64,000 nucleotides of DNA from Deltaproteobacteria bacterium (GCA_034522175.1 JAXHLQ010000001.1:4529685-4593684); one strand, 5' to 3'. Positions 3,470 to 21,266 are shown, counted from the first letter of the stretch. Made by a program: numbers and translations. Notes: generated by a model not told the origin, from the sequence alone.

Positions 3470-3896
3470 GCCCCGTCCTTGACGTTAAAGATGATTTTCA
3501 GACAGGTCCCGTTTCCCATTTTTGAATCGATGCTCAGTTCATCGGCATTTTTTTTGATATTCGGGAGGCCCATTCCGGCACCAAATCCCATCTCCTGGAA
3601 TTCTTTGGTGGCCGTGGAATAGCCCTCCTGAAGGGCGAGTTCGATGTCTTCAATACCTGGGCCGTCGTCCCGCATTTCAAGGCGGATATGCTTCGGATCG
3701 ACAATCAGTTCACAGGTGCCGTCACCGCCGTGCATGACAATATTCATTTCCGACTCATAGGCGCATATGGCGACCCGGCGGATGAGGTCAGGGGGAAACC
3801 GACGGCTTTGAGAAGTTCCTGCACCTCGATGGATACCTCGCCGGCCTTTACAAAATCCCTGGCTTTCACCTCAAAACGTTTGATAAGGTCGGTCAT
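3466..3896 (-). CDS. Anti-sigma-factor-type Ser/Thr kinase (RsbW-like GHKL ATPase), with a frameshift in the G5 run at 3791-3795.
   Basis: ORF 3466..3747 gives ...EMNIVMHGGDG...DDGPGIEDIELALQEGYST...GFGAGMGLPNIKKNADE. The upstream frame from the ATG (complement of 3894-3896) reads MTDLIKRFEVKARDFVKAGEVSIEVQELLKAVGFP. One extra base in the run restores ...GFPPDLIRRVAICAYESEMNIVMH. Confidence 0.8.
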
Positions 3897-3969
3897 CGCG
3901 ATGCCGGAGCGGAATGAGGCTTCTCATCCGTCGCTCGTCTATAAGGGTAGTATTCGGGGGAGTCTTTCG

Positions 3970-4326
3970 CTAAGCGGTCCTTCCTTCTACTCCCCTGAGG
4001 CCTTTGGCGAAAAGCCTCCCACAGGATGAAAACATGGTGAACGGCGTCGATAGCAGCGGCAGATGGTGTTTGACCGCCAGTTGAATCACCTCGGGTGCGG
4101 GCCGCTTCTTTCTGACGAAGACAATGGCCTTGACACCGGCAATAACAGAAGTCCGGATGGCCTGGGCGTTGCACAAACCCGTCAGCAATACCGTGTCCGT
4201 GTTTTGCCCGGTGAGCATGTCGCTCATGAGATCGCTCCCGGCGCCGGCCTCAATGGTGATGTCGAGTTGATCTTCTCCCGTCAGTACGTCTGCACGTAAA
4301 GTATCTTTAATATCGCTTAGTTTCAT
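3970..4326 (-). CDS. DRTGG domain protein.
   Basis: 118 aa: ...GSDLMSDMLTGQNTDTVLLTGLCNAQAIRTSVIAGVKAIVFVR... This is the typical small DRTGG ORF found in NuoEF-type operons. Confidence 0.8.
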   Translation of the reverse strand: MKLSDIKDTLRADVLTGEDQLDITIEAGAGSDLMSDMLTGQNTDTVLLTGLCNAQAIRTSVIAGVKAIVFVRKKRPAPEVIQLAVKHHLPLLSTPFTMFSSCGRLFAKGLRGVEGRTA

Positions 4327-4453: not shown

Positions 4454-7400
4454 TTAAAGATCGCATCGAAGACAGCGACGTGCCTCGAGACACGCTGCCT
4501 TTTCATCAATGCCCAATTCAACTTCATCGAAGTTATCCACCCGATCCGCCGCTGGCAGTTCATTCATCTCGGGTCGAACCAGTTTTTCATCTTCTTCTGT
4601 GGCCTCGAGGCGCGGCAGGGTGAGATGCGGCTTGGGGTGCCAGTAACCGCCGTAGGGCCGGTCCCTGAGATAACAATCGATGGATACGGCCGCACGATGC
4701 CCGGCGCCGATGGCCTCTACCACGGTCGCCGGACCGGTAACCGCATCCCCGCCGGAGAAGAATCCGGGTACATTGGTCGCCAGGGTGCGCTCATCCACCT
4801 CAAAACTGTTCCAGCGGCTGATATTGAATTGGAGATCGTCATTCAAAAACGAGAGATCCGGAGATTGACTGATGGCCGGGATGATGACATCGGTCTCAAT
4901 AATGAATTCCGAACCTTCAACAGGGACAGGCCGTCGCCGCCCGCTGGCATCGGGTTTTCCCAGTTCGTTGAAAAGGCACTCCATACCCACGACCTTGCCG
5001 TTTTCACCGAGGATTCGAATGGGGGACGTCAACAGATCGATCTGGATCCCTTCCTCTTCCGCCGCATCGACCTCGGCCGGGTTGGCCGGCATCTGCTCGC
5101 GCTGGCGGCGATAGACGATGTGGACCTCTTCGGCCCCGAGGCGCAGGGACGTTCGTGCCGCGTCGATGGCTGAATTCCCGGCGCCGATGACACATACCTT
5201 TTTACCGGGCGCCTTCTTTTCTCCCAGGTTGACATTTCTGAGGAATTTGGTGGCGTCGATGAATCCCTCGAACTCATCTTCCCCGGGTATTCTGAGTTTC
5301 AGGCCCTTATGTGCGCCAATACCGAAGAAAAACGCCTTGTACCCTGATGCTTTCATTTCATCGATGCTGATGTCCCTTCCCACACGAACGCCCAGTCGAA
5401 TCTCCACGCCAAGCCGTTTGATGGCATTGATCTCGTCGTTGAGTACATCTCGCGGGAGCCGATATTCGGGGATGCCCACATGGAGCATTCCCCCGGCCAC
5501 GGGGAGTTCTTCAAATACGGTCACCGGATATCCCTTGAGGGTGAGATCGTGGGCCACGGTCAATCCCGCGGGACCGGCCCCGATGACGGCCACCTTGTCC
5601 TCCGGAAAAAGGGCCTTTGCAGGTTCGATATCCTTAAGGCATTCTCGATTTTTATCTGCTGCAAACCGCTTCAACGCACAGATGGAAATGGGTTTGTCCA
5701 CATCCCCCCGGGTGCATTGGGTTTCACAAGGGTGCGGGCAGATACGGCCCAGGCACATGGGGAGGGGGTTTTCCATCCGGATAATGTCCCATGCCTTTCT
5801 GAATTCACCCTGGGCGATAAGCGCCGTATAGGTGGATACATCCTGTCCCGTGGGACAGGTGGACTGGCACGGCGGCGCACTGAGCCGTTTGCAGGTTCCC
5901 GTGGGGCAGTGTTTATCGAAGATGTGGGCCTCGTATTCGTGGCGAAAATATCTCAGCGTGCTCAAAACCGGGTTGGGCGCGGTCTGACCCAAACCACAGA
6001 GCGATGCGGATTGAATGACCTTGCTCAGGGTTTCCAGCCGTTCGATATCATCGGGCCTTCCGTCTCCCTGGGTAATACGCTCCAGTATGTTCAAGAGCTG
6101 TTGGGTGCCTTCCCGACACGGTGTGCATTTGCCGCAGGACTCCTCTGCCGTAAAACCGAGGAAAAACTTGGCAAGGTCCACCATGCAGGTGGTCTCATCC
6201 ATGACCACCATTCCCCCAGAGCCCACGATAGCGCCGGTCTTGGCGATATTTTCATAATCCACCGGTGTTTCAAGTAGGCTTTCCGGAATACACCCCCCGG
6301 AAGGGCCGCCGAGTTGCACCGCCTTGAATCGCTTGTTGTCCGGGATGCCGCCGCCGATATCGTAAATAATGGATCTGAGCGGCGTTCCCATGGGCACTTC
6401 TATCAATCCGATGTTGCGTACCCGTCCGCTCAGGGCAAACACCTTGGTCCCGGTACTCTTCTCCGTCCCGAGACTACTGAACCATTCTGCCCCGCGATAG
6501 ATGATCTGGGGAACATTCGCAAGACTCTCTACGTTGTTGAGAACCGAAGGACGGTCCCACAGTCCCTTATGGGCAGGGAAGGGGGGCCTCGGCCTCGGCA
6601 TGCCCCGTTTGCCTTCAATGGACCGCATCAGGGCCGTCTCCTCACCGCATACGAAGGCGCCGGCGCCGAAATAGAGTTCGATGTCCATGTCAAACCCGGA
6701 GCCGAGAATATCCTCGCCCAAAAGCCCGTAGTCCTTGGCCTGCCCGATGGCGGTCTGCAGTCTTTGGATGGCCAGGGGATACTCCGCCCTTACATAGATA
6801 AATCCGTGGTGGGAGCCGATGGCTTTCCCACCGATGATCATCCCCTCCAGTACCGCATGGGGATCACTTTCCAGTATGGATCGATCCATGAATGCGCCTG
6901 GATCGCCTTCATCGGCATTGCACAACATGTATTTGGGACTCCCTTCGGAACCCGCGCAGAACTGCCATTTGAGGCCGGTGGGGAATCCTGCGCCGCCGCG
7001 CCCCCGCAGCCCGGATGCCTTCATCTCCTCAACGATCTGTTCCGGCGTCATCTCCAAAAGGGCCTTGGCCGTTCCCATGTACCCATCCCGGGCGATATAT
7101 TCGTCGATGCTGTCGGGATCGATCAGGCCTCTGTTCCTGAGGGCCACCAGGACCTGGCGGCTGAAGAACCCGATATCCTTGATAGCGGGTACCAGTTGCT
7201 CCCCCTCCGGGCTCTCGAAGAGGAATTTCTCGGCGATACGACCCTTGACAAGATATTCCTCAACAAAATAAGGGACGTCTTTTGTTGTGAGTTTTTGATA
7301 GAAGACCCCCTCGGGATAGGCGATCATCAATGGGCCGGCGGCGCAGAAGCCGTTACATCCGGTGGTGGCCACATAGACTTCGTCCTGGAGCTCCCGTTTG

Positions 7401-7501
7401 TTGATCTCCTCGACAAGGGCGTCTCTCACATCCAGTGATCCACTGGATACGCAACTGGTTCCTGCACAGATGAGGAGATGAACGCGGTATTTCTTTTCCA
7501 T
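4454..7501 (-). CDS. NuoF/HydB-like NADH-binding FMN flavoprotein fused to a C-terminal GltD/NfnB-like NADPH:FAD oxidoreductase domain (StnB-like architecture).
   Basis: 1015 aa. Contains an N-terminal thioredoxin-like 2Fe-2S domain, the NuoF motif GRGGAGFPTGLKW, the ESCGKCTPCREG cluster site, ferredoxin Cys motifs, then GltD-like VAVIGAGPAGL (FAD) and VCVIGAGNSAIDAART (NADPH) Rossmann motifs. Confidence 0.9.
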   Translation of the reverse strand: MEKKYRVHLLICAGTSCVSSGSLDVRDALVEEINKRELQDEVYVATTGCNGFCAAGPLMIAYPEGVFYQKLTTKDVPYFVEEYLVKGRIAEKFLFESPEGEQLVPAIKDIGFFSRQVLVALRNRGLIDPDSIDEYIARDGYMGTAKALLEMTPEQIVEEMKASGLRGRGGAGFPTGLKWQFCAGSEGSPKYMLCNADEGDPGAFMDRSILESDPHAVLEGMIIGGKAIGSHHGFIYVRAEYPLAIQRLQTAIGQAKDYGLLGEDILGSGFDMDIELYFGAGAFVCGEETALMRSIEGKRGMPRPRPPFPAHKGLWDRPSVLNNVESLANVPQIIYRGAEWFSSLGTEKSTGTKVFALSGRVRNIGLIEVPMGTPLRSIIYDIGGGIPDNKRFKAVQLGGPSGGCIPESLLETPVDYENIAKTGAIVGSGGMVVMDETTCMVDLAKFFLGFTAEESCGKCTPCREGTQQLLNILERITQGDGRPDDIERLETLSKVIQSASLCGLGQTAPNPVLSTLRYFRHEYEAHIFDKHCPTGTCKRLSAPPCQSTCPTGQDVSTYTALIAQGEFRKAWDIIRMENPLPMCLGRICPHPCETQCTRGDVDKPISICALKRFAADKNRECLKDIEPAKALFPEDKVAVIGAGPAGLTVAHDLTLKGYPVTVFEELPVAGGMLHVGIPEYRLPRDVLNDEINAIKRLGVEIRLGVRVGRDISIDEMKASGYKAFFFGIGAHKGLKLRIPGEDEFEGFIDATKFLRNVNLGEKKAPGKKVCVIGAGNSAIDAARTSLRLGAEEVHIVYRRQREQMPANPAEVDAAEEEGIQIDLLTSPIRILGENGKVVGMECLFNELGKPDASGRRRPVPVEGSEFIIETDVIIPAISQSPDLSFLNDDLQFNISRWNSFEVDERTLATNVPGFFSGGDAVTGPATVVEAIGAGHRAAVSIDCYLRDRPYGGYWHPKPHLTLPRLEATEEDEKLVRPEMNELPAADRVDNFDEVELGIDEKAACLEARRCLRCDL

Positions 7502-7547: not shown

Positions 7548-7931
7548 TTAGTAAGTGGTTTCGCTTCCGACAGAAAGCGCGTATTTGGATACGGGATGCC
7601 CGTTCATCACATGTTCGTCAAATATTTTTGTGGCTTTCTCCTCATCCAGCAATACATATTTGACCGGTGCGGAATCTTTCACCTCAACGGTCATCATCGG
7701 TTCGTGATTACAGAGTCCCGCGCAGCCGGAAGAAGTCAGGATGATGTCGGCGGCCCCTGTTTTTTGTATCTTTTCGAGTAGAAAGTTCATAATCTTTCGG
7801 GCGCCCGCAGCGATGCCACAGGTGCCGAGATGAACGGTGATCTTGACGCGGTATTCACCGGCGCGCAGGTTCACGGTTCCCTTTGCCGCTTCCTTGATGC
7901 GTTTAAGGTCTTCCACACGAAGCTTGGCCAT
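7548..7931 (-). CDS. Thioredoxin-like [2Fe-2S] ferredoxin (HydD/NuoE-fold small subunit).
   Basis: 127 aa: ...HLGTCGIAAGARK...SSGCAGLCNHEPMMTV..., the characteristic Cys pattern. Confidence 0.8.
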   Translation of the reverse strand: MAKLRVEDLKRIKEAAKGTVNLRAGEYRVKITVHLGTCGIAAGARKIMNFLLEKIQKTGAADIILTSSGCAGLCNHEPMMTVEVKDSAPVKYVLLDEEKATKIFDEHVMNGHPVSKYALSVGSETTY

Positions 7932-7965
7932 TTTTTTTCCTCCATGAAGCCCTGTTGGCGTACGG

Positions 7966-8499
7966 CTATGATTCCGGGTTATTCACCATTTCTTGAATCA
8001 GTTGCAATATTTTTGGGTCTGAAATGGTGCTGAAACCTTCGATTTCATCCTTGATGGAGCGGGTATCCAGGGATGTCCGCTTTCCATCCCGCTTGTATTC
8101 ATACACAAAGTCCACATCCGGATTCCCGGCAATGAGCGACACCAGCGTGGCACCCATGTCGCCCATGGGTTTCCGGTCAATATGTCCGGCCTGAAATGTC
8201 GCCGTTAGCTCGGTTCCAAGGCCCGCCTCGGAGGCAACAGAGAGTCGGCCGCCTGCCTCCCGGGCGGCCTGCTCAAAGAGGGGGATGCCGAGTCCCACCC
8301 GGCGGGTGGTTCGGGAGGTCACAAATGGATCCGTTACCCCCTTGAGTGTTTGACTGTCCATACCGTGCCCATCGTCTTTGATGGTAATTTGCAACAGATC
8401 GCTTTTTGTATCTTCGATGATGCGAATCTCCACGCGCGTGGCGCCGGCGGTTGTGGCGTTTTCAACAATGTCCAGTATATGAAGCGATAGATCCTCCAT
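7966..8499 (-). CDS. GHKL-superfamily ATP-binding protein (histidine-kinase-like ATPase domain only).
   Basis: 177 aa: HILDIVENATTAGATRVEIRI...DDGHGMD...RRVGLGIPLFEQAAREAGG...GLGTELT (N, G1 and G2 boxes). Confidence 0.8.
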   Translation of the reverse strand: MEDLSLHILDIVENATTAGATRVEIRIIEDTKSDLLQITIKDDGHGMDSQTLKGVTDPFVTSRTTRRVGLGIPLFEQAAREAGGRLSVASEAGLGTELTATFQAGHIDRKPMGDMGATLVSLIAGNPDVDFVYEYKRDGKRTSLDTRSIKDEIEGFSTISDPKILQLIQEMVNNPES

Positions 8500-8512
8500 G
8501 AGCGTTGATGGC

Positions 8513-9308
8513 CTAATTGAGGATTTTTCGTCCGTCCATGCCTTTCAAGGCCAGCTTCAACTCCGCCAACCGGGGCGCGGCAACCCGGACACGCGTCGGG
8601 CTTGTGCCCAATTCATCCAGGTCATGGGCATCAGAGGCGGATATGAACGGGACCTTCGCATATTCAGAGTAATCCGCCTGCGCCTGGGACAGCGTGAGTC
8701 TTCGCGAAATCTCCAGGGCGTCAAAATTCAGGTCATCCGGAATGAATCCCAGTTGGCTGATCACACTGAAACTCCGTCGATCGATGTGTGCCGCAACAGC
8801 CAGACCACCGTGTTCGTGAATGCCGTTGACCACTTCATGAGCGTCAGGACGGTTCCACCGATCAAAAGCCGCGTATTGATGGCCTCGGCTTCGTCATATT
8901 CGTTCGCCACCACCTGCAGTCCAAAGAGATCCGGGTCGTTTTCGCCCGAAAAAAGATGACGGTAGACAATCGCCTGCATGGACAGGGCTTCTTCAACATC
9001 TTCAAACAGGCCGATAATGTGTGCTTCCTCGGCGGTGGTGATTTCCATGCCTGGGATCACGACCAGCTCGGTCCCCGCTGCCGAAGCCATCACAGCAGCC
9101 GCATTTCGGCGCTGTTGTGATCCGTAATGGCGATCATCGCCAGTTTACGCTTTAGGGCTTCCCGGACAATCTTTACCGGCGTCATATCCAGGGTGGCACA
9201 AGGGGAAAGGCAGGAGTGAACATGGGTATCGATGGTGATCCACTTCAACGGCGCTTCTGTTCCAACTGCCACCCGCACCCCTTGTTGAAAATCGTCTGAG
9301 AAACTCAA
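8513..9308 (-). CDS. PHP (polymerase/histidinol phosphatase) domain metal-dependent phosphoesterase, interrupted by two frameshifts (about 8847-8848 and TTT 9104-9106).
   Basis: The three ORF fragments 9090..9308 (IDTHVHSCLSPC...ITDHNSAE), 8761..9093 (AAVMASAAGTELVVIPGMEITTAEEAHIIGLF...) and 8513..8833 (VVNGIHEHGGLAVAAHIDRR...SASDAHDLDELG) join into one PHP protein after single-base corrections. Confidence 0.8.
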
Positions 9309-9646
9309 CTACCGGCCACACCCATTTCAAAGAGCTTGCCGACCAACTCAAACGTAGGCATTTTACTGACCAGTATGGGGATCTGCTCTTCAACGGCCTT
9401 TTTGAGGGTCATGGGATCAGGTTCTCTGCTGTTGACCAGGATAATGCCCGAAAGCGATTTCATGACTGCGATGGCGACGATGTTCTGATGCGCCTGCAGC
9501 GTGACCCATAAATCGCCCTCCGCGGCATTTCCCATGACATCACTCAACAAATCGCTGGCATAACCGCGGGTGACCTCCCTGTCCAACTGCGTTTCTCCGC
9601 TTTTGATTTCAAGGTCGAGTTTTTCGATGATCTTCTGAAGCTTCAT
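9305..9646 (-). CDS. DRTGG domain protein (second copy).
   Basis: 113 aa: ...YASDLLSDVMGNAAEGDLWVTLQAHQNIVAIAVMKSLSGIILVN... It is a paralogue of 3970..4326. Confidence 0.8.
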   Translation of the reverse strand: MKLQKIIEKLDLEIKSGETQLDREVTRGYASDLLSDVMGNAAEGDLWVTLQAHQNIVAIAVMKSLSGIILVNSREPDPMTLKKAVEEQIPILVSKMPTFELVGKLFEMGVAGS

Positions 9647-9687: not shown

Positions 9688-12600
9688 TTATATCGTGCCC
9701 CGGTAGCTCTCCACAATGTCGACAATTTGTTTCGGGTCCACCTCTCCATGGGTGGTGTCATCCACCACCATGACCGGGGCGAGTCCGCAGGCCCCGATAC
9801 ATCGGACCACTTCCAGGGAATATTCCCTATCTTCGGTGGTTTCGCCGATTCCCACGTGGAGGTGCTGCTCAAGCTTTTCCAACAGTCTTCCCGAGCCCTT
9901 GACAAAACAGGCCGTACCCAAACATACCCGGATGGTGTGTTGTCCCCTGGGGACCATGGTAAAAAACGAATAAAAGGTGACCACACCGAATACATAGGAT
10001 GGTGCAACACCGAGTCCCAGCGCAATATAGTTCTGGACGGGAACCGGCAGGAAGCCCAGGATCCCCTGGACCTGCTGCAGCACCGGAATCAGCCCACCGC
10101 GTTTGGTTTTATAGGTGGAGAGTATCTCGTCAATTTTCTCTTTCGCGTCTGTCTTTTCTTCCTCCTGAAGGAGCGCGATAAAGGCCTCTTTGACTTCTTC
10201 CGGATTGCTGGGCGGGACCTGTGTGCCGATGCCTCCGCTCTTGGGAAGGGATTCCAGGAGTCCGCCGCAATGTTCCAGCAGCGTGCGATGGTGGTAATTG
10301 AAGGATGTCCAGCCGGGACGTCTGAGGGGGGATCGTGCATCCCTGGGTCCTGGAACCCCCAGTTTCTGCGGGTCGGTCAAAGGCCGCTGCACCCCCTGTT
10401 TCTCCATGCGTTCATAGGTCATCCCCTCGAGTTGAGGGATCAGGTCGATGATTTCCTTTTCCCAAATGTCACGGGGGGTGGATTCCGGCCATGAAAGGCC
10501 CAGTCGATTGGCCAACTGGGTGAAAATCCATGTTTCCGGTTGGGCATCTCCGGGAGCAGGCACCGCATATCGAACGCGACTCACGCGTCTTTCGCAATTG
10601 GTGTACGTGCCTTCTTCTTCAGCCCAGGCGGCGGCGGGAAGCACCACATCTGCGTAGGGGATGGTTTCATTGTTCAGGATATCCTGCACCACGAGAAATT
10701 CGACTGCCTCCAGGGCAGCGGTCACGTTGGGCATGACCGGTGTGGTGAGTGCCAGATTTTCGCCCACGCAATAAAGGACGCGGATGGGCGTGCCTGCCTC
10801 CTGCTTTCCATTGCTCAGGTTTTGAATCATCTCGGAAAACCGCAAGCCGGGTTTGCTGTTCAGCGAAGTTCCCCAGGCCGTTTCAAAGGCGTTACGCGAC
10901 GCGTCATCCTCCACCCGGGCGAATCCGGGAAGAAAGTTCGGCAGCAATCCCATGTCACAGGCCCCTTGGGAATTGTTCAGATCGCCGAGGTAGTTCACCC
11001 CCCCGTAAGGGACGCCGAGATTTCCGAGGACATCCTGTAGGGCCACAAAGGTCCTGGCAAAGGAAGCAACCTTGGACCCATACACCAGCATGGCCGGTTC
11101 TTCCCTGTCGAGAATGTCCACGGCGGACAGGATATCATCGGCTGTAAGCCCCGTGATCTGTGTCACCTTAGCCATGTCATAGCTTTGCGTGCTCTTTTCG
11201 ATATCCTCAGCACATGTTCGTCCTCTTTGGATGAGTTGATGCATGATACCGTTGATGAGAACGGACTCGGTGCCCTCTTTCAAAAGAAGATGGGTATTGG
11301 CAAAGGTGCCGATCTTCGTGGGTATGGAGTTTACAACAATGAGTTGCGCACCGGCTTCGGATGCCCGCTTGACGAATGTGCCGGCGACCGGGTTTTCTTC
11401 GGTGATGTCGCTTCCGATGAGCAAAATGCGCTTCGCCTTTTCCAGTTCAGAGAGCGGGTTATTCAGCCCGCCTGCGGCGAAGGGGGAGGCCAGGTTGTTG
11501 GTGCCGATGCCCACCCTGAAGAGCTTCTGCATGGTATAAAGGGCTTCGTTTGTGGATTTGGCCGAACAGATGCCTGCAACGGAATCAGGGCCTTCTTTTT
11601 CCACGGTTTCTTTGATCTTTTTGGCGATAAGATCCAGGGCCTCTTCCCAGGAGGCACCCCTCAACTCGCCGTCCTTTCGAATCATGGGTCGGGTGAGACG
11701 TTCCGGACTCTGAACAAAATCGTATCCGAAGCGGCCCTTTACGCAAAGCCGCCCATGGTTGGGTTGGACCCCTTCGACCGCCGTGACCTTCATGATGGTG
11801 TCATTCTTGATGTGAAGATCCAGCTGGCACCCTACGCCGCAATAGTAACAGGTGGTCCGGACGTGCCGGGCCTCCCACGGTCTGATCTTGTAGCGGCTCT
11901 TTTTCTCCACCAGGGCACCGACCGGGCAGGCCTGGATGCACTGACCACAGAATACGCATTCCGACCGATCCAGGGATCCATCCCCCATGGCGATAATCCT
12001 GGCTTCGGCACCTCTGAAGCCGTGGGAAATGGCGTTATTGACCTGGATGCTGTTGCAGGCCTCTACACACCGGCCGCAGAGAATGCAGCGTGAGGCATCC
12101 CTTACAATGAGGGGACTTGCCGTCTCCATGGGATATTCGGCTGGGGCCCGGACCAGTCCACCGGTATCCACCTGATAACGGTAGGCATAGGCCTGCAGTT
12201 TACAGGCGCTGTGGGCCGGGCAGAGCTCCGTGGTTTGGTCATATTGTTCCACCTGTCGCTGAAAGTCGGTCCAGTCGTCTGAGGCCTTTTTGGCCACTGC
12301 GCAGTTGTGATTGCCGGATTGGAGCAACAGGGCCAGAACCGTTTGACGGGCTTCTTTGACCGCAGGCGAGTTGGTATGAACCACCATCTTATCGCCGGCC
12401 GGGGCGGAACAGGAGGGGGCAAGGGCGCGGGCCCCTTCGATCTCCACGAGACAGACCCGGCAGGCACCGGTCGGTGTGGTGCCTTCAAGGTGACACAGGG
12501 TGGGAATGAAAATCCCGTTGCGTCTGGCCACTTCGAGGATCGTCTCTCCAGGGGTAAACGCCAATTGGCGACCGTCTATGGTAATCTTCTGTTCGGACAT
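9688..12600 (-). CDS. FdhA/NuoG-like molybdopterin-oxidoreductase-family iron-sulfur protein that lacks the formate dehydrogenase catalytic residues, fused at its C-terminus to a NuoE-like [2Fe-2S] domain.
   Basis: The start is preferred at ATG 12598-12600 (MSEQKITIDG...), with GGAGAG upstream. The N-terminus has a 2Fe-2S fold and 2x[4Fe-4S] motifs (CILCGRCVEAC, CVFCGQCIQACP), followed by the MopB 4Fe-4S site CYYCGVGC...GRLCVKGRFG. Where FdhF has NNVDCCARVUHGPS, this protein reads IGTNNLASPFAAGGLNN. The C-terminal ~150 aa are NuoE-like (...RGGLIPVLQQVQ...CLGTACFVKG...CIGACGLAPVMVV). Confidence 0.85.
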   Translation of the reverse strand: MSEQKITIDGRQLAFTPGETILEVARRNGIFIPTLCHLEGTTPTGACRVCLVEIEGARALAPSCSAPAGDKMVVHTNSPAVKEARQTVLALLLQSGNHNCAVAKKASDDWTDFQRQVEQYDQTTELCPAHSACKLQAYAYRYQVDTGGLVRAPAEYPMETASPLIVRDASRCILCGRCVEACNSIQVNNAISHGFRGAEARIIAMGDGSLDRSECVFCGQCIQACPVGALVEKKSRYKIRPWEARHVRTTCYYCGVGCQLDLHIKNDTIMKVTAVEGVQPNHGRLCVKGRFGYDFVQSPERLTRPMIRKDGELRGASWEEALDLIAKKIKETVEKEGPDSVAGICSAKSTNEALYTMQKLFRVGIGTNNLASPFAAGGLNNPLSELEKAKRILLIGSDITEENPVAGTFVKRASEAGAQLIVVNSIPTKIGTFANTHLLLKEGTESVLINGIMHQLIQRGRTCAEDIEKSTQSYDMAKVTQITGLTADDILSAVDILDREEPAMLVYGSKVASFARTFVALQDVLGNLGVPYGGVNYLGDLNNSQGACDMGLLPNFLPGFARVEDDASRNAFETAWGTSLNSKPGLRFSEMIQNLSNGKQEAGTPIRVLYCVGENLALTTPVMPNVTAALEAVEFLVVQDILNNETIPYADVVLPAAAWAEEEGTYTNCERRVSRVRYAVPAPGDAQPETWIFTQLANRLGLSWPESTPRDIWEKEIIDLIPQLEGMTYERMEKQGVQRPLTDPQKLGVPGPRDARSPLRRPGWTSFNYHHRTLLEHCGGLLESLPKSGGIGTQVPPSNPEEVKEAFIALLQEEEKTDAKEKIDEILSTYKTKRGGLIPVLQQVQGILGFLPVPVQNYIALGLGVAPSYVFGVVTFYSFFTMVPRGQHTIRVCLGTACFVKGSGRLLEKLEQHLHVGIGETTEDREYSLEVVRCIGACGLAPVMVVDDTTHGEVDPKQIVDIVESYRGTI

Positions 12601-12777: not shown

Positions 12778-14861
12778 CTACTGACCCGTTTTCCATGTCT
12801 GCGATTTCGGATTTTTGTAACAAATCAGACCGCAGTTGAGACATCTGCGGGCCTCGTTTCTCGCAGCAGCTTCATCGAGCCCCGGCCAGGGTTTGGGGAA
12901 AATCCAGGCACTCTCACTATCCCCCTCCACATCGAGTGAAGGCGGTCGCTCTCTTTCCAGTGTCTCGACGTGGTGGACTTCTGATACATCCAGCACGGAT
13001 GCGGCTTCACACACCAATTCATCCATCGATCCAACCTGTCCGTCCGTAAGGTAGGTATGGATGGCACGGCAGAGCCGACGTCCTGAGAGGATCGACTTGA
13101 CCACCGCCGAAGAATCGCTGAGCCTGCCGGGTTCCGGTGCAGTGAACACGCCATTCCGGCCCGTTTTTGGAAACGTGTGGAAGGTTTCAACGGTTCGCCA
13201 CTGTGAGGCGGCCGCGTCCGTGGTGTCATCCGAGTCATCGGGGACAAACACCAACTCCGGGAGCCGGGCGCCTGGGAAAACAACACTGTCCACATGACGT
13301 GTGGTTGTTTCCACGAAATCCGCGCGCCGGGAATCTCGCGTTTCCAGTCCGATATCCGTCAGGCGATCATCGGTTCCTTTGAGGAAGGTCACATGGGTGG
13401 AAGCGTGAATCTCAATCCCCTCGGCAGCCAATGCGCGGGTATCTTTGAATGCCGCAGGGAGTTCGGCGGGATCAAGGTTTGAAATGATGTGTACCGTTTT
13501 TGCCCCCTGCTTTTTCAGCGTGCGTGCCAGGTCGAGTCCTTCAGCCATGTTGTGGACGATGGCGACCTCTTTGCCGATGTTGACCGTTTCGTTCGCAGCG
13601 AGGGCGGTCCAGAGATCCAGCAATATGAAAAGACCCTGAAAGGGGAGGTCAAACTGATTGACTTCAGGACGGAGGATCTTTTGGCTGTCGATCCCGCCTG
13701 TTGTCAGCACCACCGCATCATACCCTTCGTGCAGAAGCCCCCCCGGCGTGAAATCCCGACCCATGACCCTATTGGTTTTTGCCTCCACACCCATTTTCAG
13801 AATCCCATCAATTTCATGATCCAGGATGTCCCGGGGAAGCCGGTCTTCGGCAATGACATACCGTAAAATGCCTCCCAGTTCTGGTTTAGCCTCGAAGAGG
13901 GTAGGTCGGTAACCGAGCCGGGCCAGATAATAGCCGGTGGTTAACCCTTCGACACCGCCGCCGATAACAGCGATTTTGCGATGGTTGTCGTCGGCCTTGT
14001 AGGGATTGATATGGGCGTCGTTGGCCATCTCATATTCGGCGACAAATCGTTTGAGGGAATTGATGGCCACGGGTTCATCCACCATGTTTCGTCTGCAGGC
14101 CATTTCGCAGGGAGCCGGACAGATATGCCCGCAGATGAGCGGAAGGGCGCATTTCTCCTTTATGGTGAGGAGGGCCCCCGGGTAATCCCCGTTGTGGATC
14201 TGGCTGATATAGCGGGGGATGTTGATGCCGGTGGGGCAGGTCCGCTGCAAGGGGCCGTGCATTCGTCGGTCTGATATTCGTCGATGATTCGAAGTGAGTT
14301 GGAACTGAGGGTAATGATGTGTTTCGGGCAGATTCGCTCGCAGGTGCCGCAGCCTGTGCATCGCTCTGTGTTGACGATGGGCAGGTTGTCGGGCCCGATG
14401 GTGAGCGCATCAAAGGGGCACGCGCGAACACAGGTGCCGAGTCCCAGACATCCGATGGGGCATTCTTTGGACCCTCCTCCCAGCAGCATGGCGGCGCGAC
14501 AATCATGAATGCCCTGATAGATGTATTTCAGGTCTGCTTCCTGGGTTCCATAGCGGCATCCCGGGAATGCAAATTCGGGCTCCCTGAGCTCCAATTCCAC
14601 GCCCATGATGGCCGCAATTTCAACAGCGATCTCAGCTCCGCCTGCGACGCAGGAGGACGGTGAGGATTGACCGGCTACAATAGCGGCGGCGTTGGAACTG
14701 CATCCGGGTAATCCGCATCCGCCGCAGTTCGCCCCGGGGAGCGCATCGTCCACCGCTTCGATCTTGGGATCCACATACACGTAGAACACCTTCGAAGCCA
14801 GTGCCAGGCAAATGCCGATGGCAACACCCAATCCCCCCATTACCAGAAACCCACCTAACAT
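12778..14861 (-). CDS. rnfB: RnfB (Rnf complex subunit B) fused to a GltD/NfnB-like FAD flavoprotein domain, interrupted by one frameshift near 14245-14250.
   Basis: ORF 14160..14861 has an N-terminal TM helix, the CGGCGLPGC motif and 2x[4Fe-4S] motifs (CLGLGTCVRACP, CTGCGTCERICP). ORF 12778..14361 continues in another frame as ...CPTGINIPRYISQIHNGDY...ICPAPCEMACRR...KIAVIGGGVEGL. One added base gives ...DECTAPCQRTCPTGINIP. Confidence 0.8.
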
Positions 14862-14955: not shown

Positions 14956-15530
14956 CTACACCATCCCTTTAAAAGCGAAAAAAGCGAGGGAGATCATGCC
15001 TGCGGTCACGAGCCCGATGGACGTATCCTGCAAGGGTTTTGGAACCCTGGCGAGGAGGAGACGTTCTCGAATCCCCGCAAAGAGAATCAGGGCCAGTCCG
15101 AAGCCCACCGCATAGCTGAGAGAGGCCACCAGTGCCTGAACAAAACCGTATTCTTCGTTGATATTGATGAGGCATACCCCCATGACCGCACAATTGGTGG
15201 TGATGAGGGCAGGAATATTCCGAGCCCCGCATAGAGCGTCGGAATACTCTTTCTCAAAAACATCTCCACCAGTTGGACCAGGGATGCGATGACCAGGATG
15301 AAGGCCAGTGTCCTCAAATATTCAAGCTCAAACGGTCGGAGAAGAAATGTGTTGACGATCCAGGTGATGGCGCCTGCCATGACCAGCACGAATACGACCG
15401 CCATGGCCATTCCGGTGGCCGTCTCCATCCGTTTGGAAACCCCGAGAAAGGGACAGTTCCCGAGGTATTGCATCAGCAGGATGTTGTTGACAAAGATGCA
15501 GCTGACGATCAGTAAGATGTAGTCACCCAT
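14956..15530 (-). CDS. rnfA: Rnf complex subunit A, with a frameshift in the G3 run at 15207-15209.
   Basis: ORF 15087..15530 reads MGDYILLIVSCIFVNNILLMQYLGNCPFLGVSK...LYAGLGIFLP. ORF 14956..15183 reads ...CAVMGVCLININEEYGFVQALVASLSYAVGFGLALILFAGIRERL. One added base restores GIFLPLITTNCAVMG. Confidence 0.85.
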
Positions 15531-15548
15531 TCTGCTGCCTCCGATCGA

Positions 15549-16145
15549 TTATCTCATTTTCCCCAGCATATTCATTACACACAGCATCAACCCCAGACAG
15601 ACGAACGCCCCCGGGGCCTGCACCATGAAACCGAATGGCTCAAAGCTCGGCCCAAACACCGGAATATCGTAGAAGGTCCCATTACCGAGGACCTCACGAA
15701 CGATGGAGAGGGCGGTCAGTGACAGGGTGAAGCCCACGCCGATGCCGAGTCCGTCGGCAAAGGAATGAACAACCCCGTTCTTGGCGGCGAAGGCCTCTGC
15801 CCGGCCCAATACGATGCAGTTGACCACAATGAGGGGGATAAAGATGCCCAGTTTCAGAAAGAGGGATAGGCGAATGCCTGCATCACCAATTCGACTACGG
15901 TGACAAAGGTGGCGATCACCACGATGTAGCAGGCGATTCCGAACCCGCTTGGGGATGACGTTTCTGAGCAGCGATATCAGGACATTGGAACACACCAGCA
16001 CGAATGTGGTCGCGATGCCCATGCCGATCCCGTTTTCCACCCCCTTGGTCACGGCCAGCGTCGGACACAGGCCCAGAACCAGGCGAAAAGGTGGAATCTT
16101 GGCCCAAAGCCCTTTGGTGAATTCTTGAACTGCCGTCTTTGCCAT
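15549..16145 (-). CDS. rnfE: Rnf complex subunit E. The ORF stays open, but about 25-30 internal codons (about 15862-15937) are out of frame because of two compensating indels.
   Basis: The in-frame text ...IPKRVRNRLLHRGDRHLCHRSRIGDAGIRLSLFLKLGIFIPLIVVNCIVLGRAEAFA is unlike RnfE. The +1 frame of the same DNA reads IACYIVVIATFVTVVELVMQAFAYP, which matches the RsxE/RnfE consensus ([24 protein letters not shown]). Confidence 0.85.
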   Translation of the reverse strand: MAKTAVQEFTKGLWAKIPPFRLVLGLCPTLAVTKGVENGIGMGIATTFVLVCSNVLISLLRNVIPKRVRNRLLHRGDRHLCHRSRIGDAGIRLSLFLKLGIFIPLIVVNCIVLGRAEAFAAKNGVVHSFADGLGIGVGFTLSLTALSIVREVLGNGTFYDIPVFGPSFEPFGFMVQAPGAFVCLGLMLCVMNMLGKMR

Positions 16146-16160
16146 TTCCGCACTCCCTCA

Positions 16161-16760
16161 CTATTGTGTAAGCGCCTTTACCCCCTTGGCGATATCTGTT
16201 TTTATCCGCTGGTAGCGCGCGCTCGTTTTTCCGACCGCACCGCACACCCCCCGGGATGAAATGGTCGCGCCGCTGAGTGCATCAATCTGCCCGCCGTCGG
16301 CCTTTACCTTGAATGGGTCCTGAACGGGAAGCCCTTCAAATTGTTCGGTAAATGAGGCGTCGGTCTTTGCGCGCGACCCCACGCCCGGGGTTTCGCTGTG
16401 GGTGGTGACCTCCACGCCGACGATTTCGTCTGTGTCGATATTCACACCGACAACAACACCGATATCCCCGCCGAAGCCTTTGCCGAAAGATTCCAATGCC
16501 ACCACATTGGGCTTGCCGTCAAACACACCCACAAAAACCGTTGTTTCCTCCCCATTATCCGTCACCTTGAATCGATCGGTAATGGGATTGTTGGTACTGC
16601 CCTTTAGAATTTCATTGATGGCCGGTCCCTTGACGAACTTGAGCTGCTGGTATTCGATCCGATCCTTGGTGGCATTTTGAATGGCCGCCAGCACACCGCC
16701 GGAGAGCGAACTGAAAATGACAATCACTATGAACAGTTTCATCATCTCACGCATCTTCAT
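16161..16760 (-). CDS. rnfG: Rnf complex subunit G (FMN-binding).
   Basis: 199 aa with an N-terminal TM anchor and the covalent-FMN motif SGATISSRG. Confidence 0.85.
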   Translation of the reverse strand: MKMREMMKLFIVIVIFSSLSGGVLAAIQNATKDRIEYQQLKFVKGPAINEILKGSTNNPITDRFKVTDNGEETTVFVGVFDGKPNVVALESFGKGFGGDIGVVVGVNIDTDEIVGVEVTTHSETPGVGSRAKTDASFTEQFEGLPVQDPFKVKADGGQIDALSGATISSRGVCGAVGKTSARYQRIKTDIAKGVKALTQ

Positions 16761-17715
16761 GCCTCTTTCCCAGGGCCCTCGGCCTGATTTTGTCGAAAAG
16801 CGGATTGGCCACGTTGACCATCAGAATGGCGAACACGACGCCGTCCACAAAAGCACCGATGTTGCGGATAAGAACGGTCAGAAATCCGGCGCATGCCCCG
16901 TATATCAGCATGGGCAGGAAGTTGACCGGAGATGAGGAATCCTCTGTGGCGAGGAAAAAGGCTCCGATGAGGGTGTATCCCGTCAGGAGGTGAAACAGGG
17001 GGGGGGCATAGGCCGCTGAGTCGGCCACGTAAAACAAAAGGGCGGTCATAAAGACCCCCGTCAGAAAAGAGAGGGATATCTCCCACCGAATGAACCCTCT
17101 GAGCATCAGATAGACGCCACCGATGATGAGCCCCAGGCCGAAGGTGGAGCCGATGGCGCCGGGCTCCTGGCCCATCAACAGATCGCCCAGGGGGTAATTG
17201 TACAGGACATCGGTCCCGAAATATTTCAGGGCGCTCAACGGATAGACCATGGTCACCCCAAGATCGTAATGGACCAGGGCCTCGTTAAAATCGAGCATGG
17301 CCTCCCATGACAGCATGATCATGGCGATGGCCACCAAAGAGGGATTGAGGGGATTCCCGCCGACCCCGCCAAAAATCTGTTTTCCGATGACGATGGCGAT
17401 AAATGTGCCCACCAGGACCACCCACCACGGCGTGGATGCGGGGAGTAGCATGGCAAAGAGCAGACCGATGACCGCCGCATTCCCGTCTCCGATACTGATG
17501 GGTCTTTTCATTACCAGATTCATGAGGAGTTCCCAGCCAATGGCAAAGGAAACGGCGAAGGCCACCACACCGAGGGCGGGCGCCCCGTATTGATAGATTC
17601 CCATAATGACCGCTGGAAGCGCGGCCAGCATGGTATGGTAACTCTTGGCGCAGAGACCGCTTCCATTGTGCCAGTAGGGGGCGTATGACCCAATAAAAAG
17701 CTTTTTATTCTCCAT
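16747..17715 (-). CDS. rnfD: Rnf complex subunit D (polytopic membrane subunit).
   Basis: The start is preferred at ATG 17713-17715 (MENKKLFIGSYAPYWHNG...), with GGAGGA upstream. The tracked ORF 16747..17928 begins inside rnfC. The sequence is typical of RnfD/NqrB. The expected [S/T]GAT site reads VTMVY by eye. Confidence 0.8.
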   Translation of the reverse strand: MENKKLFIGSYAPYWHNGSGLCAKSYHTMLAALPAVIMGIYQYGAPALGVVAFAVSFAIGWELLMNLVMKRPISIGDGNAAVIGLLFAMLLPASTPWWVVLVGTFIAIVIGKQIFGGVGGNPLNPSLVAIAMIMLSWEAMLDFNEALVHYDLGVTMVYPLSALKYFGTDVLYNYPLGDLLMGQEPGAIGSTFGLGLIIGGVYLMLRGFIRWEISLSFLTGVFMTALLFYVADSAAYAPPLFHLLTGYTLIGAFFLATEDSSSPVNFLPMLIYGACAGFLTVLIRNIGAFVDGVVFAILMVNVANPLFDKIRPRALGKRHEDA

Positions 17716-18992
17716 CGGATTCCTCCGCGGCCCGCTGTAGAGCGAGTTCATGTTTCCCGAGCATAATGTAGTGAAATACGGGAATGTGAAGCATGCAGAC
17801 GTAACTGCAGAGACCGCATTCAACACATGACAGGAGGTCATAACGCTGAGCGGCTTCTTCATAGAGCCGGTTTTCAAGCAGGCGCACGAGCATGTTGACC
17901 GGTAGCCTTGCAGGGCAGGCCCGCACACATTCTCCGCAATTCACGCATGGGCTGTCCGAGGCCGCGACGATCTGATGCTTATCCTGAATAAAGATGGCAT
18001 CGGTGGTGTGCATCACCGGCATCTTTTCTGAATAGACGCTGTGGCCGGTCATGGGTCCGCCGAAGACGATCCGGTCTCCCTGATCGGTTGATATGTCGAG
18101 GTCGGTCAGGATGTCCTCTACGGGCGTCCCGATTCTTGCCCGTACAAGGCTGACGCGGGCGTCTTTGTGGATAACGGAGACGACCTTTTCCACCGGCGGC
18201 CGTCTGTCGACGAAGGCTGTTTTAAGGGCCAGTACGGCTTCGACATTAAGGACCCCCACGCCCAAATCGGAGGGGGTATGGTCACGGGGATATCCTGGTT
18301 CAGGAGGTCTCGAACCGTAAACCAGGGGAGGGCCTTTGGATAAGTGGGATCGATAACCTTGACTTCCGCACCGGTCTTCTCGGCCGCTGATTGCAGGCTG
18401 GGTGGAATAACCAGGATGACGCGAGCGGCCCCCGTTATGTCCTTGAGACAGCTTACGCCCTCCCTGATTCCCGTGGCTTCGGTGTTGAGGATAAATTGTT
18501 GGGTGGACACCAGAAGATCCTGATCGATGCCGTTTATAATAAGGGTATGGACAGGGTTCTCAATGTCGAGTATCGCGTGAACATCCGCCATGCCGGGGAG
18601 GCGGGGAGAAATTCCCGGGCGACCTGGGCACTCGGCGATTCGGCTGCATCCGTGAATCCGGTGTCCCATCTGTCCGGTTCATCCACATCGATGGTCACGC
18701 AGATGGAGCGATGATCGGTATAGGTGCTGTCTTCAAAAACGGCGTCAACCGTCCCGGTAGCTGTGGTCGTGAGATTTCCTTTCTTGCCTCCTGAAAAGGG
18801 AACTGCCGCTCCTGTCTTGACCTCTGTGTCCTGCCTGAGGCCAAGATCTCCCGGATGTATACGATTGTCATGCAGAAGGAGGGTTACTTTTTTTGGAAGC
18901 GGTATATCCCTGACTTCCGTCTGAGCGAAAAGCGCAATGTCCGCATATGTCAGTTTCGGTCTGGTAAAACCGAAAAATGGCCTTTTAATCAT
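17705..18992 (-). CDS. rnfC: Rnf complex subunit C-like protein, interrupted by two frameshifts (G5 18272-18276 and G4 18603-18606). The NADH/FMN-binding glycine motif is not recognisable.
   Basis: The fragments 18534..18992 (N-terminal barrel-like part), 18118..18669 (...HTLIINGIDQDLLVSTQQFIL...) and 17705..18265 (...CVNCGECVRACP...CVECGLCSYVC) join after single-base corrections. The consensus GMGGAGFPTHVK/NGAECEPYLT region reads LPGMADVHAILDI/NGIDQDLLVS. Confidence 0.75.
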
Positions 18993-19081
18993 CGCTTGCC
19001 TCCTGACTCATGAGAAAGGGACCCGTCTTTCCCATAAGAAAAGGGTTTGAACCTGATGCACATGGCGCTTTGGCGAGGATC

Positions 19082-19456
19082 TTACCTCATGTGGCAGGAA
19101 TAACATTCGACCGGACCGCTCCCACTGTCTTTGTGGCACCCAATACATTGCTTGTGAAGGGCGTCGGATCGCTTGGGGGCATCCTCGCCATCCGATAAAT
19201 GACATTCTCCACAAGACGTCGGTCTTTCGCCTTCGTCTTCGAGCATGTGATGGCATGTGTTGCATTCGAATGCGTAACCGGCCTCGGAAAAATGCATGTT
19301 ATGATCAAACAGGACCTTTCCGCCTGTGGTTTTGTACATAATTCTTAAGGGATTTTCGGGTGTCTTTTTTGCGAAGGCCGTGTAGCAGAGGAGCCCTGCA
19401 ATGAACAGGACAACTGCCATGACGTAGCCAATCGTTTTTTGAGTGTTTGCGGCCAT
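19082..19456 (-). CDS. Membrane-anchored tetraheme c-type cytochrome (cytochrome c3-like); first gene of the rnf array.
   Basis: Four CxxCH motifs (CNTCH, CGECH, CIGCH, CYSCH) follow one N-terminal hydrophobic helix. The start is preferred at ATG 19454-19456 (MAANTQKTIGYVMAVVLFIAG...), with GAGGAG upstream. Confidence 0.8.
   Translation of the reverse strand: MAANTQKTIGYVMAVVLFIAGLLCYTAFAKKTPENPLRIMYKTTGGKVLFDHNMHFSEAGYAFECNTCHHMLEDEGERPTSCGECHLSDGEDAPKRSDALHKQCIGCHKDSGSGPVECYSCHMR

Positions 19457-19790: not shown

Positions 19791-21266
<1,476 letters not shown>

Follow-up and report, generated by a model that had tools for sequence, protein, structure and literature searches.

The question raised by this locus is whether an rnf operon in which RnfC and RnfD have departed from the canonical cofactor motifs can still encode a ferredoxin:NAD+ (nicotinamide adenine dinucleotide) oxidoreductase. 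The operon lies on a stretch of 64,000 nucleotides (hereafter the window) from a Deltaproteobacteria bacterium (GCA_034522175.1, JAXHLQ010000001.1:4529685-4593684). Coordinates are those of the whole 64-kb stretch, and the Rnf operon is entirely on its minus strand, in the order cytochrome c, rnfC, rnfD, rnfG, rnfE, rnfA, and then rnfB fused to a GltD-like domain. A first-pass annotation of the DNA had proposed a non-canonical Rnf in which NAD+ is not the partner at RnfC, with an eroding operon as the alternative. We assign the operon, from its sequence, to the known Rnf2/Tol2 type of Rnf, of which it is a Desulfatiglandales example, because its architecture and RnfC defect match the published description, its syntenic relatives are intact, and its RnfG scores above the cut-off of the NCBIfam model NF045876. 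The type has already been published (PMC5109826; PMC11887813 supplement), so the operon is not a new variant; the view that NAD+ is not the partner at RnfC is strengthened by an RnfC predicted to be without flavin mononucleotide (FMN) or NADH binding in the NuoF manner. In our judgment the operon probably encodes a functional, cytochrome-c3-associated complex that passes electrons out to a periplasmic cytochrome c, with its frameshifts being consensus errors.

Nucleotide and flavin sites of RnfC

The rnfC gene (17705..18992; 428 residues in orthologues) is spread over three frames in the window by two 1-nucleotide deletions. The segment LPGMADVHAILDIENPVHTLIINGIDQDLLVS lies within a single frame between these two indels, and its reading is therefore independent of indel correction; the region reads identically in intact orthologues. 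Orthologous operons were retrieved through their RnfD homologues, which had 81% identity in loci L004 to L006 and 93% in L007. With phmmer, the L007 RnfC could be aligned to PDB chains of RnfC from A. vinelandii, A. woodii, and C. tetanomorphum, and a 72-sequence profile aligned end to end with solved RnfC (E 1e-42 to 1e-50). The G(L/M)GGAxFPxxVK motif of solved RnfC aligns to sLPGa here, with a 3-residue deletion, and NG(A/S)ECEPYLT aligns to NGxDxDLLvT in the profile and to NGIDQDLLVS in the window. Alignment based on hidden Markov models (HMMs) recovered neither the GxGGAxFP nor the ECEP motif, and both regions are outside the frameshifts.

Domain scores gave the same picture. RnfC scored 20–28 bits with the Pfam model Complex1_51K (cut-off 31.2), the match beginning at profile position 27, and 185 bits with TIGR01945, under the cut-off of 246. 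Twenty diverse loci of the phylum were compared, 19 of them variant and one canonical (L140). The canonical RnfC served as a control and scored 179 bits with Complex1_51K over positions 1–149, 111 bits with RnfC_N, and 46 bits with SLBB. The same procedure showed every motif in the L140 RnfC and RnfD, and the possibility that the motif losses are alignment artefacts was rejected.

The eight cysteines of the two [4Fe-4S] motifs, which the first-pass annotation had reported as kept, were invariant across the 72 RnfC sequences. An AlphaFold2 model of the L007 RnfC (predicted local distance difference test 79; predicted template modeling score 0.75) best matched solved RnfC, with template modeling (TM) scores of 0.70–0.72, compared with 0.60–0.63 for NqrA and about 0.45 for NuoF-type subunits. 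A closer relationship to NqrA was rejected on these scores and on the profile, which matched NqrA at E 2e-7. Judged by the alignments, the Pfam and NCBIfam scores, the kept cysteines, and the fold match, RnfC is an RnfC-fold Fe-S protein without the NuoF-type flavin and nicotinamide pocket. On the loss of this pocket, which had been suspected from the motifs, phmmer, profile, Pfam, and fold comparison agree.

Flavin pocket of RnfD

The rnfD gene (16747..17715) is unbroken and encodes 322 residues. In C. tetanomorphum RnfD the FMN-bearing residue is Thr153, and the residues around the FMN in the structure are Asn90, Arg130, Glu185, Gly237, and Ser284 (PMC9588780). In the HMMER alignment, GVTMVYPL of the window RnfD falls on GVTTATPL in the proteins from C. 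tetanomorphum and A. woodii, which places Tyr at the position of Thr153 (C. tetanomorphum numbering). The absence of the [S/T]GAT threonine, first noticed by eye, was thus reproduced by HMM-based alignment; moreover, the site had Thr or Ser in 0 of 76 relatives, which mostly carried Tyr and in a few cases Phe, His, Ala, or Asp. In place of the five surrounding residues stand, respectively, Leu, Ile, Ser/Ala, Tyr, and Val. All six FMN contact positions were altered in 19/19 variant loci, with replacing residues that were mostly hydrophobic or aromatic, and were conserved in 3/3 canonical RnfDs. Because all the FMN-contact residues, and not Thr153 alone, are replaced, we conclude from the alignments that the pocket is remodeled and not merely unlinked. 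Together with the RnfC results, these data support the prediction that RnfD has no capacity for covalent FMN and that RnfC cannot bind FMN or NADH as NuoF does.

The riboflavin/Na+ residues are kept in RnfD, namely Asn124 and Asp248 (Asp or Glu; Glu here). The L004 RnfD orthologue scored 229.7 bits with TIGR01946, above the cut-off of 207. In a tree of RnfD sequences the Thr-less clade stood apart from canonical RnfDs and from NqrB with support of 96/88. The search of the PDB with RnfD also returned an engineered V. cholerae NqrB-T236Y chain (9UD3); in that mutant FMN is absent and electron flow is disrupted (PMC12901251).

Each of 20 aligned variants (L004 and L121–L139) had at least one aromatic residue in the former FMN pocket: Tyr153 and Tyr237 in the window's clade, and Trp, Tyr, or Phe at position 130 elsewhere. 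These aromatic residues could fill the cavity, or electrons could hop along them toward the riboflavin site.

The retained subunits

The rnfG gene (16161..16760) is unbroken. Its product scored 64.9 bits with Pfam FMN_bind and 250 bits with NF045876 (RnfG_DVU2794; cut-off 205), compared with 248 bits for the L004 RnfG. It reads IDALSGATISS, with the flavinylation motif D-A-L-S-G-A-T, and the motif D-A-x-S-G-A-T was found in 72/72 relatives, in agreement with the earlier statement that RnfG keeps SGAT. In rnfE (15549..16145) the reading frame is open, with about 26 codons out of frame; the alternative frame gives back IACYIVVIATFVTVVELVMQAFAYP, and both Cys motifs are present (GLCPTLAV and VVNCIVLG). 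Both Cys motifs of RnfA (14956..15530; one 1-nucleotide deletion) are likewise present (GNCPFLG and TTNCAVMG), and RnfA has 98% and 94% identity to the L004 protein on either side of its frameshift. RnfD, RnfE, RnfA, and RnfG exceeded the NCBIfam Rnf cut-offs in the profile search. None of the Nqr models exceeded its cut-off on the operon proteins, the operon contains no NqrF homologue, and the NCBIfam 'Methano' Rnf models were far under cut-off on the same proteins. The apbE gene is at C1:2447256-2448080, 2.1 Mb from the operon, beside a classical rnf operon.

Alignment shows an input half whose predicted cofactor sites are intact: RnfB has its Fe-S domains, RnfA and RnfE have their Cys pairs, and RnfG has its flavinylation site. 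By the same alignments the return half appears stripped of its flavins, RnfD having lost its covalent-FMN pocket and RnfC its FMN/NADH pocket.

Distribution among Desulfobacterota

A scan of one genome per species found this RnfC type in 452 species, and the loci of the best 80 were detailed. These best 80 of the 452 were from Desulfatiglandales and allied metagenome-assembled genomes and included the cultured strain NaphS2; among them the order cytochrome, rnfCDGEA, rnfB::GltD is the rule. RnfC was without both motifs in 81/81 relatives. Apparent internal stops in rnfC of L055 and L098 were discounted, because in both the BLAST alignment simply ended two codons beyond the natural stop. RnfG was above the NF045876 cut-off in 40 of 301 genomes of the phylum.

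Among the diverse loci, L121 and L122 have the Desulfovibrio arrangement (decaheme cytochrome, rnfCDGEAB, apbE). Their RnfC proteins are also without the motifs (Complex1_51K 28–29 bits; TIGR01945 150 bits), and their RnfD proteins have Asp at the FMN-Thr site. From these comparisons, the flavin-site losses are fixed and conserved, being found in approximately 76–81 Desulfatiglandales species with intact operons and in 19 diverse Desulfobacterota loci. The phylogenomic survey thus found the variant to be common to Desulfatiglandales and diverse Desulfobacterota. It also bears out the earlier comparison with the cytochrome-led rnf genes of Desulfovibrio: the window RnfG is above the RnfG_DVU2794 cut-off, and the same losses occur in Desulfovibrio-type loci.

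The cytochrome c gene

The first gene of the operon (19082..19456) encodes a tetraheme c3-type cytochrome c of 124 residues, with 91% identity to the L007 orthologue. It had been described as a membrane-anchored tetraheme cytochrome. The tetraheme part of that description is correct, with four CxxCH motifs (CNTCH, CGECH, CIGCH, and CYSCH) and 49.8 bits to Pfam PF02085, but the anchoring is not established: the hydrophobic N-terminus terminates at a possible cleavage site between AFA and KK, and, instead of anchoring the protein, could be cut off as a signal peptide. A cytochrome gene was 5' of rnfC in nearly all of the 80 related loci, and 66 of the 75 cytochromes scored in related loci had four heme motifs.

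In five loci of the Thr-less clade (L131, L133, L135, L136, and L137) no cytochrome c gene adjoins rnf. Three of these five still have the RnfB::GltD fusion.

RnfB and the downstream flavoprotein genes

The rnfB gene (12778..14861; 692 residues in orthologues) is joined across one indel, a 1-nucleotide deletion, and encodes an RnfB N-terminus followed by Fer4_20 and Pyr_redox_2 domains, so that RnfB is fused to a GltD/NfnB-like flavoprotein domain. The flavoprotein fusion reported by the first-pass annotation is present as a domain, but its NAD(P)H glycine motif is lost in this lineage. The Rossmann motif for flavin adenine dinucleotide (GGGVEG) is intact, and the second, NAD(P)H motif is degenerate, reading IVHNMAEG in the window and IVHNLSEG in L004. 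Across the phylum, GGGNTAID is intact in 9/11 diverse Rnf2-type RnfB fusions.

Two further minus-strand genes continue the operon, and they do so only in the window's sub-lineage. One encodes an FdhA/NuoG-like Fe-S protein fused to NuoE (9688..12600); it follows rnfB in the closest relatives only, and all NCBIfam matches of its product were below cut-off. The other (4454..7501) encodes a 1015-residue NuoF-like protein fused to a GltD-like domain (NuoF::GltD), which scored 155 bits with Complex1_51K, 123 bits with NADH_4Fe-4S, and 97 bits with Pyr_redox_2. Its FMN/NADH domain and its NADPH motif (VIGAGNSAID) are intact, and it holds the only recognizable pyridine-nucleotide sites in the gene array. 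The array therefore does carry the sites that are missing from RnfC and RnfB, in a soluble module distinct from these two proteins. The degeneracy of the RnfB NAD(P)H motif (window 13000-13900, and L004), which is confined to this sub-lineage, coincides with the presence of these two downstream genes.

The co-directional array sits between guaB (19803-21266, plus strand) and the flavoprotein module. Interleaved with the flavoprotein genes of the array, at 2165-4326 and 7548-9646, are genes for an [FeFe]-hydrogenase-like protein (Fe_hyd_lg_C, 74 bits), two DRTGG-domain proteins, and a HATPase_c protein. Together these genes may serve the redox module in sensing or regulation.

Proposed electron route

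From the sites described above we infer that the complex likely couples ion movement to the transfer of electrons between donors in the cytoplasm and cytochrome c in the periplasm; it is plausible that these electrons reach cytochrome c from ferredoxin and the flavoprotein. Reduced ferredoxin would feed electrons in at RnfB; in this lineage NAD(P)H might do so as well, by way of the downstream module of NuoF::GltD and FdhA-like/NuoE, which would dock at RnfB's flavoprotein extension. Electrons would then cross the membrane via RnfA and RnfE to the FMN of RnfG, and would pass from RnfG to the operon's periplasmic tetraheme cytochrome c and on to the network of cytochrome c3, Qrc, and menaquinone, with no return to NAD+. 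Translocation of Na+ or H+ would be coupled at RnfA/E, and the reaction is possibly reversible. RnfC would be an NqrA-like scaffold or a second Fe-S port.

Several points weigh against this reading. The electron acceptor of Rnf2-type complexes is one that we infer. The model does not account for the fact that RnfC has invariant [4Fe-4S] motifs and that RnfD has kept its riboflavin-site residues, and both features speak for some continued electron flow through the 'return' branch. Because 5/19 variant loci share the flavin-site losses without a neighboring cytochrome gene, the cytochrome is not an obligatory co-trait of flavin-site loss. In D. alaskensis the co-transcribed dhcA is dispensable where rnf is essential (PMC4215793). 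In addition, with 6 indels in 6.7 kb, the operon carries them at about five times the mean density of the genome (0.18 per kb). The sites kept in RnfC and RnfD, the cytochrome-less loci, and the dispensable dhcA leave us with moderate confidence in the specific electron route.

A different assignment of the donor is unlikely, although it has something in its favor. The complex would be an NAD(P)H:cytochrome c (or NAD(P)H:ferredoxin) pump that takes its nucleotide at the GltD-like extension of RnfB, by analogy with NqrF. This would fit the intact GGGNTAID of most Rnf2-type fusions, the fact that RnfB occupies the NqrF position in the NADH:quinone oxidoreductase that translocates Na+ (Na+-NQR; PMC9588780), and the published discussion of Rnf2, which proposes an NAD interaction at RnfB (PMC11887813 supplement). 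However, the second Rossmann motif as it stands in the window and in L004 makes direct NAD(P)H binding by RnfB unlikely here, and the N-terminal ferredoxin-type domains of RnfB are kept, so that ferredoxin is still a possible substrate.

Frameshifts

The reading of the operon as a functional complex that delivers electrons to cytochrome c also includes the nature of its indels, of which the first-pass annotation had counted six. Comparison with intact orthologous operons located six single-base events: 1-nucleotide deletions at ~18607 and ~18273 in rnfC, a 1-nucleotide insertion at ~15943 and a 1-nucleotide deletion at ~15865 in rnfE, and 1-nucleotide deletions at ~15204 in rnfA and ~14247 in rnfB. 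All six are at or next to G/C runs of 3–5 bases, and five are deletions. The two in rnfE compensate within 78 nucleotides. Identity to the orthologues was equally high on either side of each frameshift, the operon contains no premature stops besides those made by the frameshifts, and the rnf genes were uninterrupted in every relative examined.

The source assembly has two contigs and 5.24 Mb. The frequency of split genes in it was estimated by searching it with 186 open reading frames of at least 250 residues, drawn from twenty 20-kb samples (400 kb) of a complete genome of the same family (G015). Frame-splits were found in 20 of 94 clear orthologues (21%), or 0.18 shifts per kb of coding sequence. 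The split genes were often neighbors, as at C1:4265313-4279891 and C1:666271-668156. Because the assembly looks indel-rich, pseudogene and frameshift calls in this genome need read support. As 1-nucleotide events at G/C runs in a genome with 21% of genes frame-split, the six indels are likely consensus errors of a long-read assembly, and erosion is unlikely.

For erosion to hold, the six indels would have to be real, the rnf2 genes pseudogenes, and the operon in the course of being lost from this organism. The density given above favors this, as does the unbroken state of the neighboring guaA, guaB, ABC (ATP-binding cassette) transporter gene, and 2.9-kb FdhA-like gene. We nevertheless consider it improbable: a split fraction of 21% is far above the usual rate of pseudogenization, the splits cluster regionally elsewhere in the genome too, and the kind and sites of the six events, the compensation in rnfE, the absence of other stops, the sustained identity, and the intact relatives all count against it. 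For the window, the practical lesson is that the frameshifts are a matter of assembly quality and not of biology.

A second rnf operon (rnfCDGEAB, then apbE) was found at C1:2447256-2454000, with its rnf genes at C1:2448339-2454000. It is also frame-split, in rnfD and rnfC. From its apbE neighbor and its weak similarity to the Rnf2 subunits, it is taken to be of the classical Rnf1 type.

An ordinary ferredoxin:NAD+ Rnf, its motifs missed through indels or by-eye misalignment, would agree with public records that annotate the genes as RnfABCDGE-type subunits and with the four subunits that exceed the NCBIfam Rnf cut-offs, but it is refuted by the alignments and can be given hardly any credence, since the motif regions are outside the frameshifts and have the same sequences in intact orthologues, since phmmer, the 72-sequence profile, Pfam, and fold comparison put variant residues at the cofactor positions, and since canonical L140 passed through the same procedure with all of its motifs.

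Implications

The preferred reading, a cytochrome-c3-associated Rnf2/Tol2-type complex, may extend beyond this operon. We suggest tentatively, as a possibility that we would not yet put at even chances, that the whole cytochrome-associated Rnf clade of Desulfobacterota, with the Rnf2 of Desulfobacteraceae and Desulfatiglandales and also the genetically studied dhcA-rnf of Desulfovibrio, is not a ferredoxin:NAD+ oxidoreductase, and that its loop has been opened into a one-way path, ion-coupled, from ferredoxin or flavoprotein donors in the cytoplasm to cytochromes c in the periplasm. The loop would be cut open in the whole clade because RnfD is without its FMN pocket and RnfC without its FMN/NADH pocket. 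If this is true, energy-conservation models of sulfate reducers in which NADH is made by Rnf need revision.

Desulfobacteraceae oxidize a large share of the organic carbon in marine sediments. In metabolic models, the Rnf of these bacteria and of Desulfatiglans relatives is treated as a pump between ferredoxin and NAD+. The sequences show that this clade has neither an NAD+ site nor an RnfD flavin, and indicate the same for the Desulfovibrio-type complex, whose fitness data are currently interpreted through NADH production.

Comparison with known systems

In their passages on Rnf, Doerries et al. (2016), with reference to Woehlbrand et al. (2013), set out a 'D. toluolica Tol2-type' Rnf with an RnfB of ~700 residues that has an NAD-binding domain and an RnfC without the NADH-ubiquinone oxidoreductase domain; a partner other than NAD is said to be required, and experimental verification to be awaited (PMC5109826). 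The same passages report that D. multivorans has Rnf2 beside a classical Rnf1, that its Rnf2 cluster encodes a small acidic cytochrome, and that five Rnf2 subunits were detected under all substrate conditions (PMC5109826). A 2025 study found Rnf2 in the core genome of Desulfobacteraceae, abundantly and constitutively formed in the strains examined (PMC11887813); its supplement gives the same differences in RnfB and RnfC and points to cytochrome c3 as a further place where electrons might enter or leave. Where these two sources treat the complex, the remaining subunits are called 'very similar' to classical Rnf, 'Rnf1' is assigned to Desulfovibrionaceae, and protein-level detection of Rnf2 is given for cultured Desulfobacteraceae only (PMC5109826, PMC11887813). 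A 2025 review of Rnf and Nqr makes no mention of sulfate reducers (PMC12174285). That RnfD has lost its flavin pocket, and that this loss reaches the Desulfovibrio type too, seems to be undescribed in the Rnf2 literature considered here (PMC5109826, PMC11887813, PMC12174285).

The operon in the window agrees with the published Rnf2/Tol2 type in the order of cytochrome c3, rnfCDGEA, and large rnfB, in an RnfB of ~700 residues with a C-terminal domain of the pyridine-nucleotide-disulfide-oxidoreductase type, in an RnfC without the NuoF-type FMN/NADH (Complex1_51K) domain, and in sharing its genome with another rnf operon, here taken to be classical, as in D. multivorans and D. autotrophicum. It differs in that its host belongs to Desulfatiglandales and not to Desulfobacteraceae, the RnfB extension has a degenerate NAD(P)H glycine motif, and the operon runs on into the FdhA-like/NuoE and NuoF::GltD genes. 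Compared with the canonical ferredoxin:NAD+ Rnf, it lacks the RnfC pocket motifs, a TIGR01945 score above cut-off, and the Thr and pocket of RnfD, whereas the RnfG flavinylation motif and the RnfA and RnfE Cys pairs for the membrane Fe-S center are shared.

The dhcA-rnfCDGEAB-apbE operon of Desulfovibrio (DVU2791-2797; Dde_0580-0587) is essential on H2, formate, or ethanol with sulfate (PMC4215793, PMC4841214), and the literature treats this type as a ferredoxin:NAD+ oxidoreductase. The window's operon shares with it the RnfG family NF045876 and the leading cytochrome c gene, and shares with the Desulfovibrio-type loci L121 and L122 an RnfC without the glycine loop and ECEP and an RnfD without the Thr (Asp in those loci). 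In contrast, the Desulfovibrio type has a decaheme DhcA, an RnfB of ~300 residues, and apbE within the operon, whereas the cytochrome here is tetraheme and apbE is elsewhere.

An analogy with M. acetivorans, also proposed in the first-pass annotation, is only partly apt. A multiheme cytochrome c gene heads the rnfCDGEAB operon in both cases, and MmcA-Rnf is a Na+-translocating ferredoxin:methanophenazine complex whose acceptor is not NAD and whose electrons go to the periplasmic-side cytochrome. However, the cytochromes are of different types, and the M. acetivorans Rnf is reported to keep its cofactor sites (10.1101/2022.07.20.500911). With respect to Na+-NQR, NqrB has a covalent FMN and the RnfD here does not; NqrA is without Fe-S and the RnfC here has two [4Fe-4S] sites; and the operon has neither an NqrF homologue nor the quinone-site helices. 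The resemblances to Na+-NQR are NqrA itself, which is a flavin-less RnfC homologue, the common core of RnfADEG/NqrEBDC, and an NAD(P)H-type flavoprotein on the RnfB/NqrF side.

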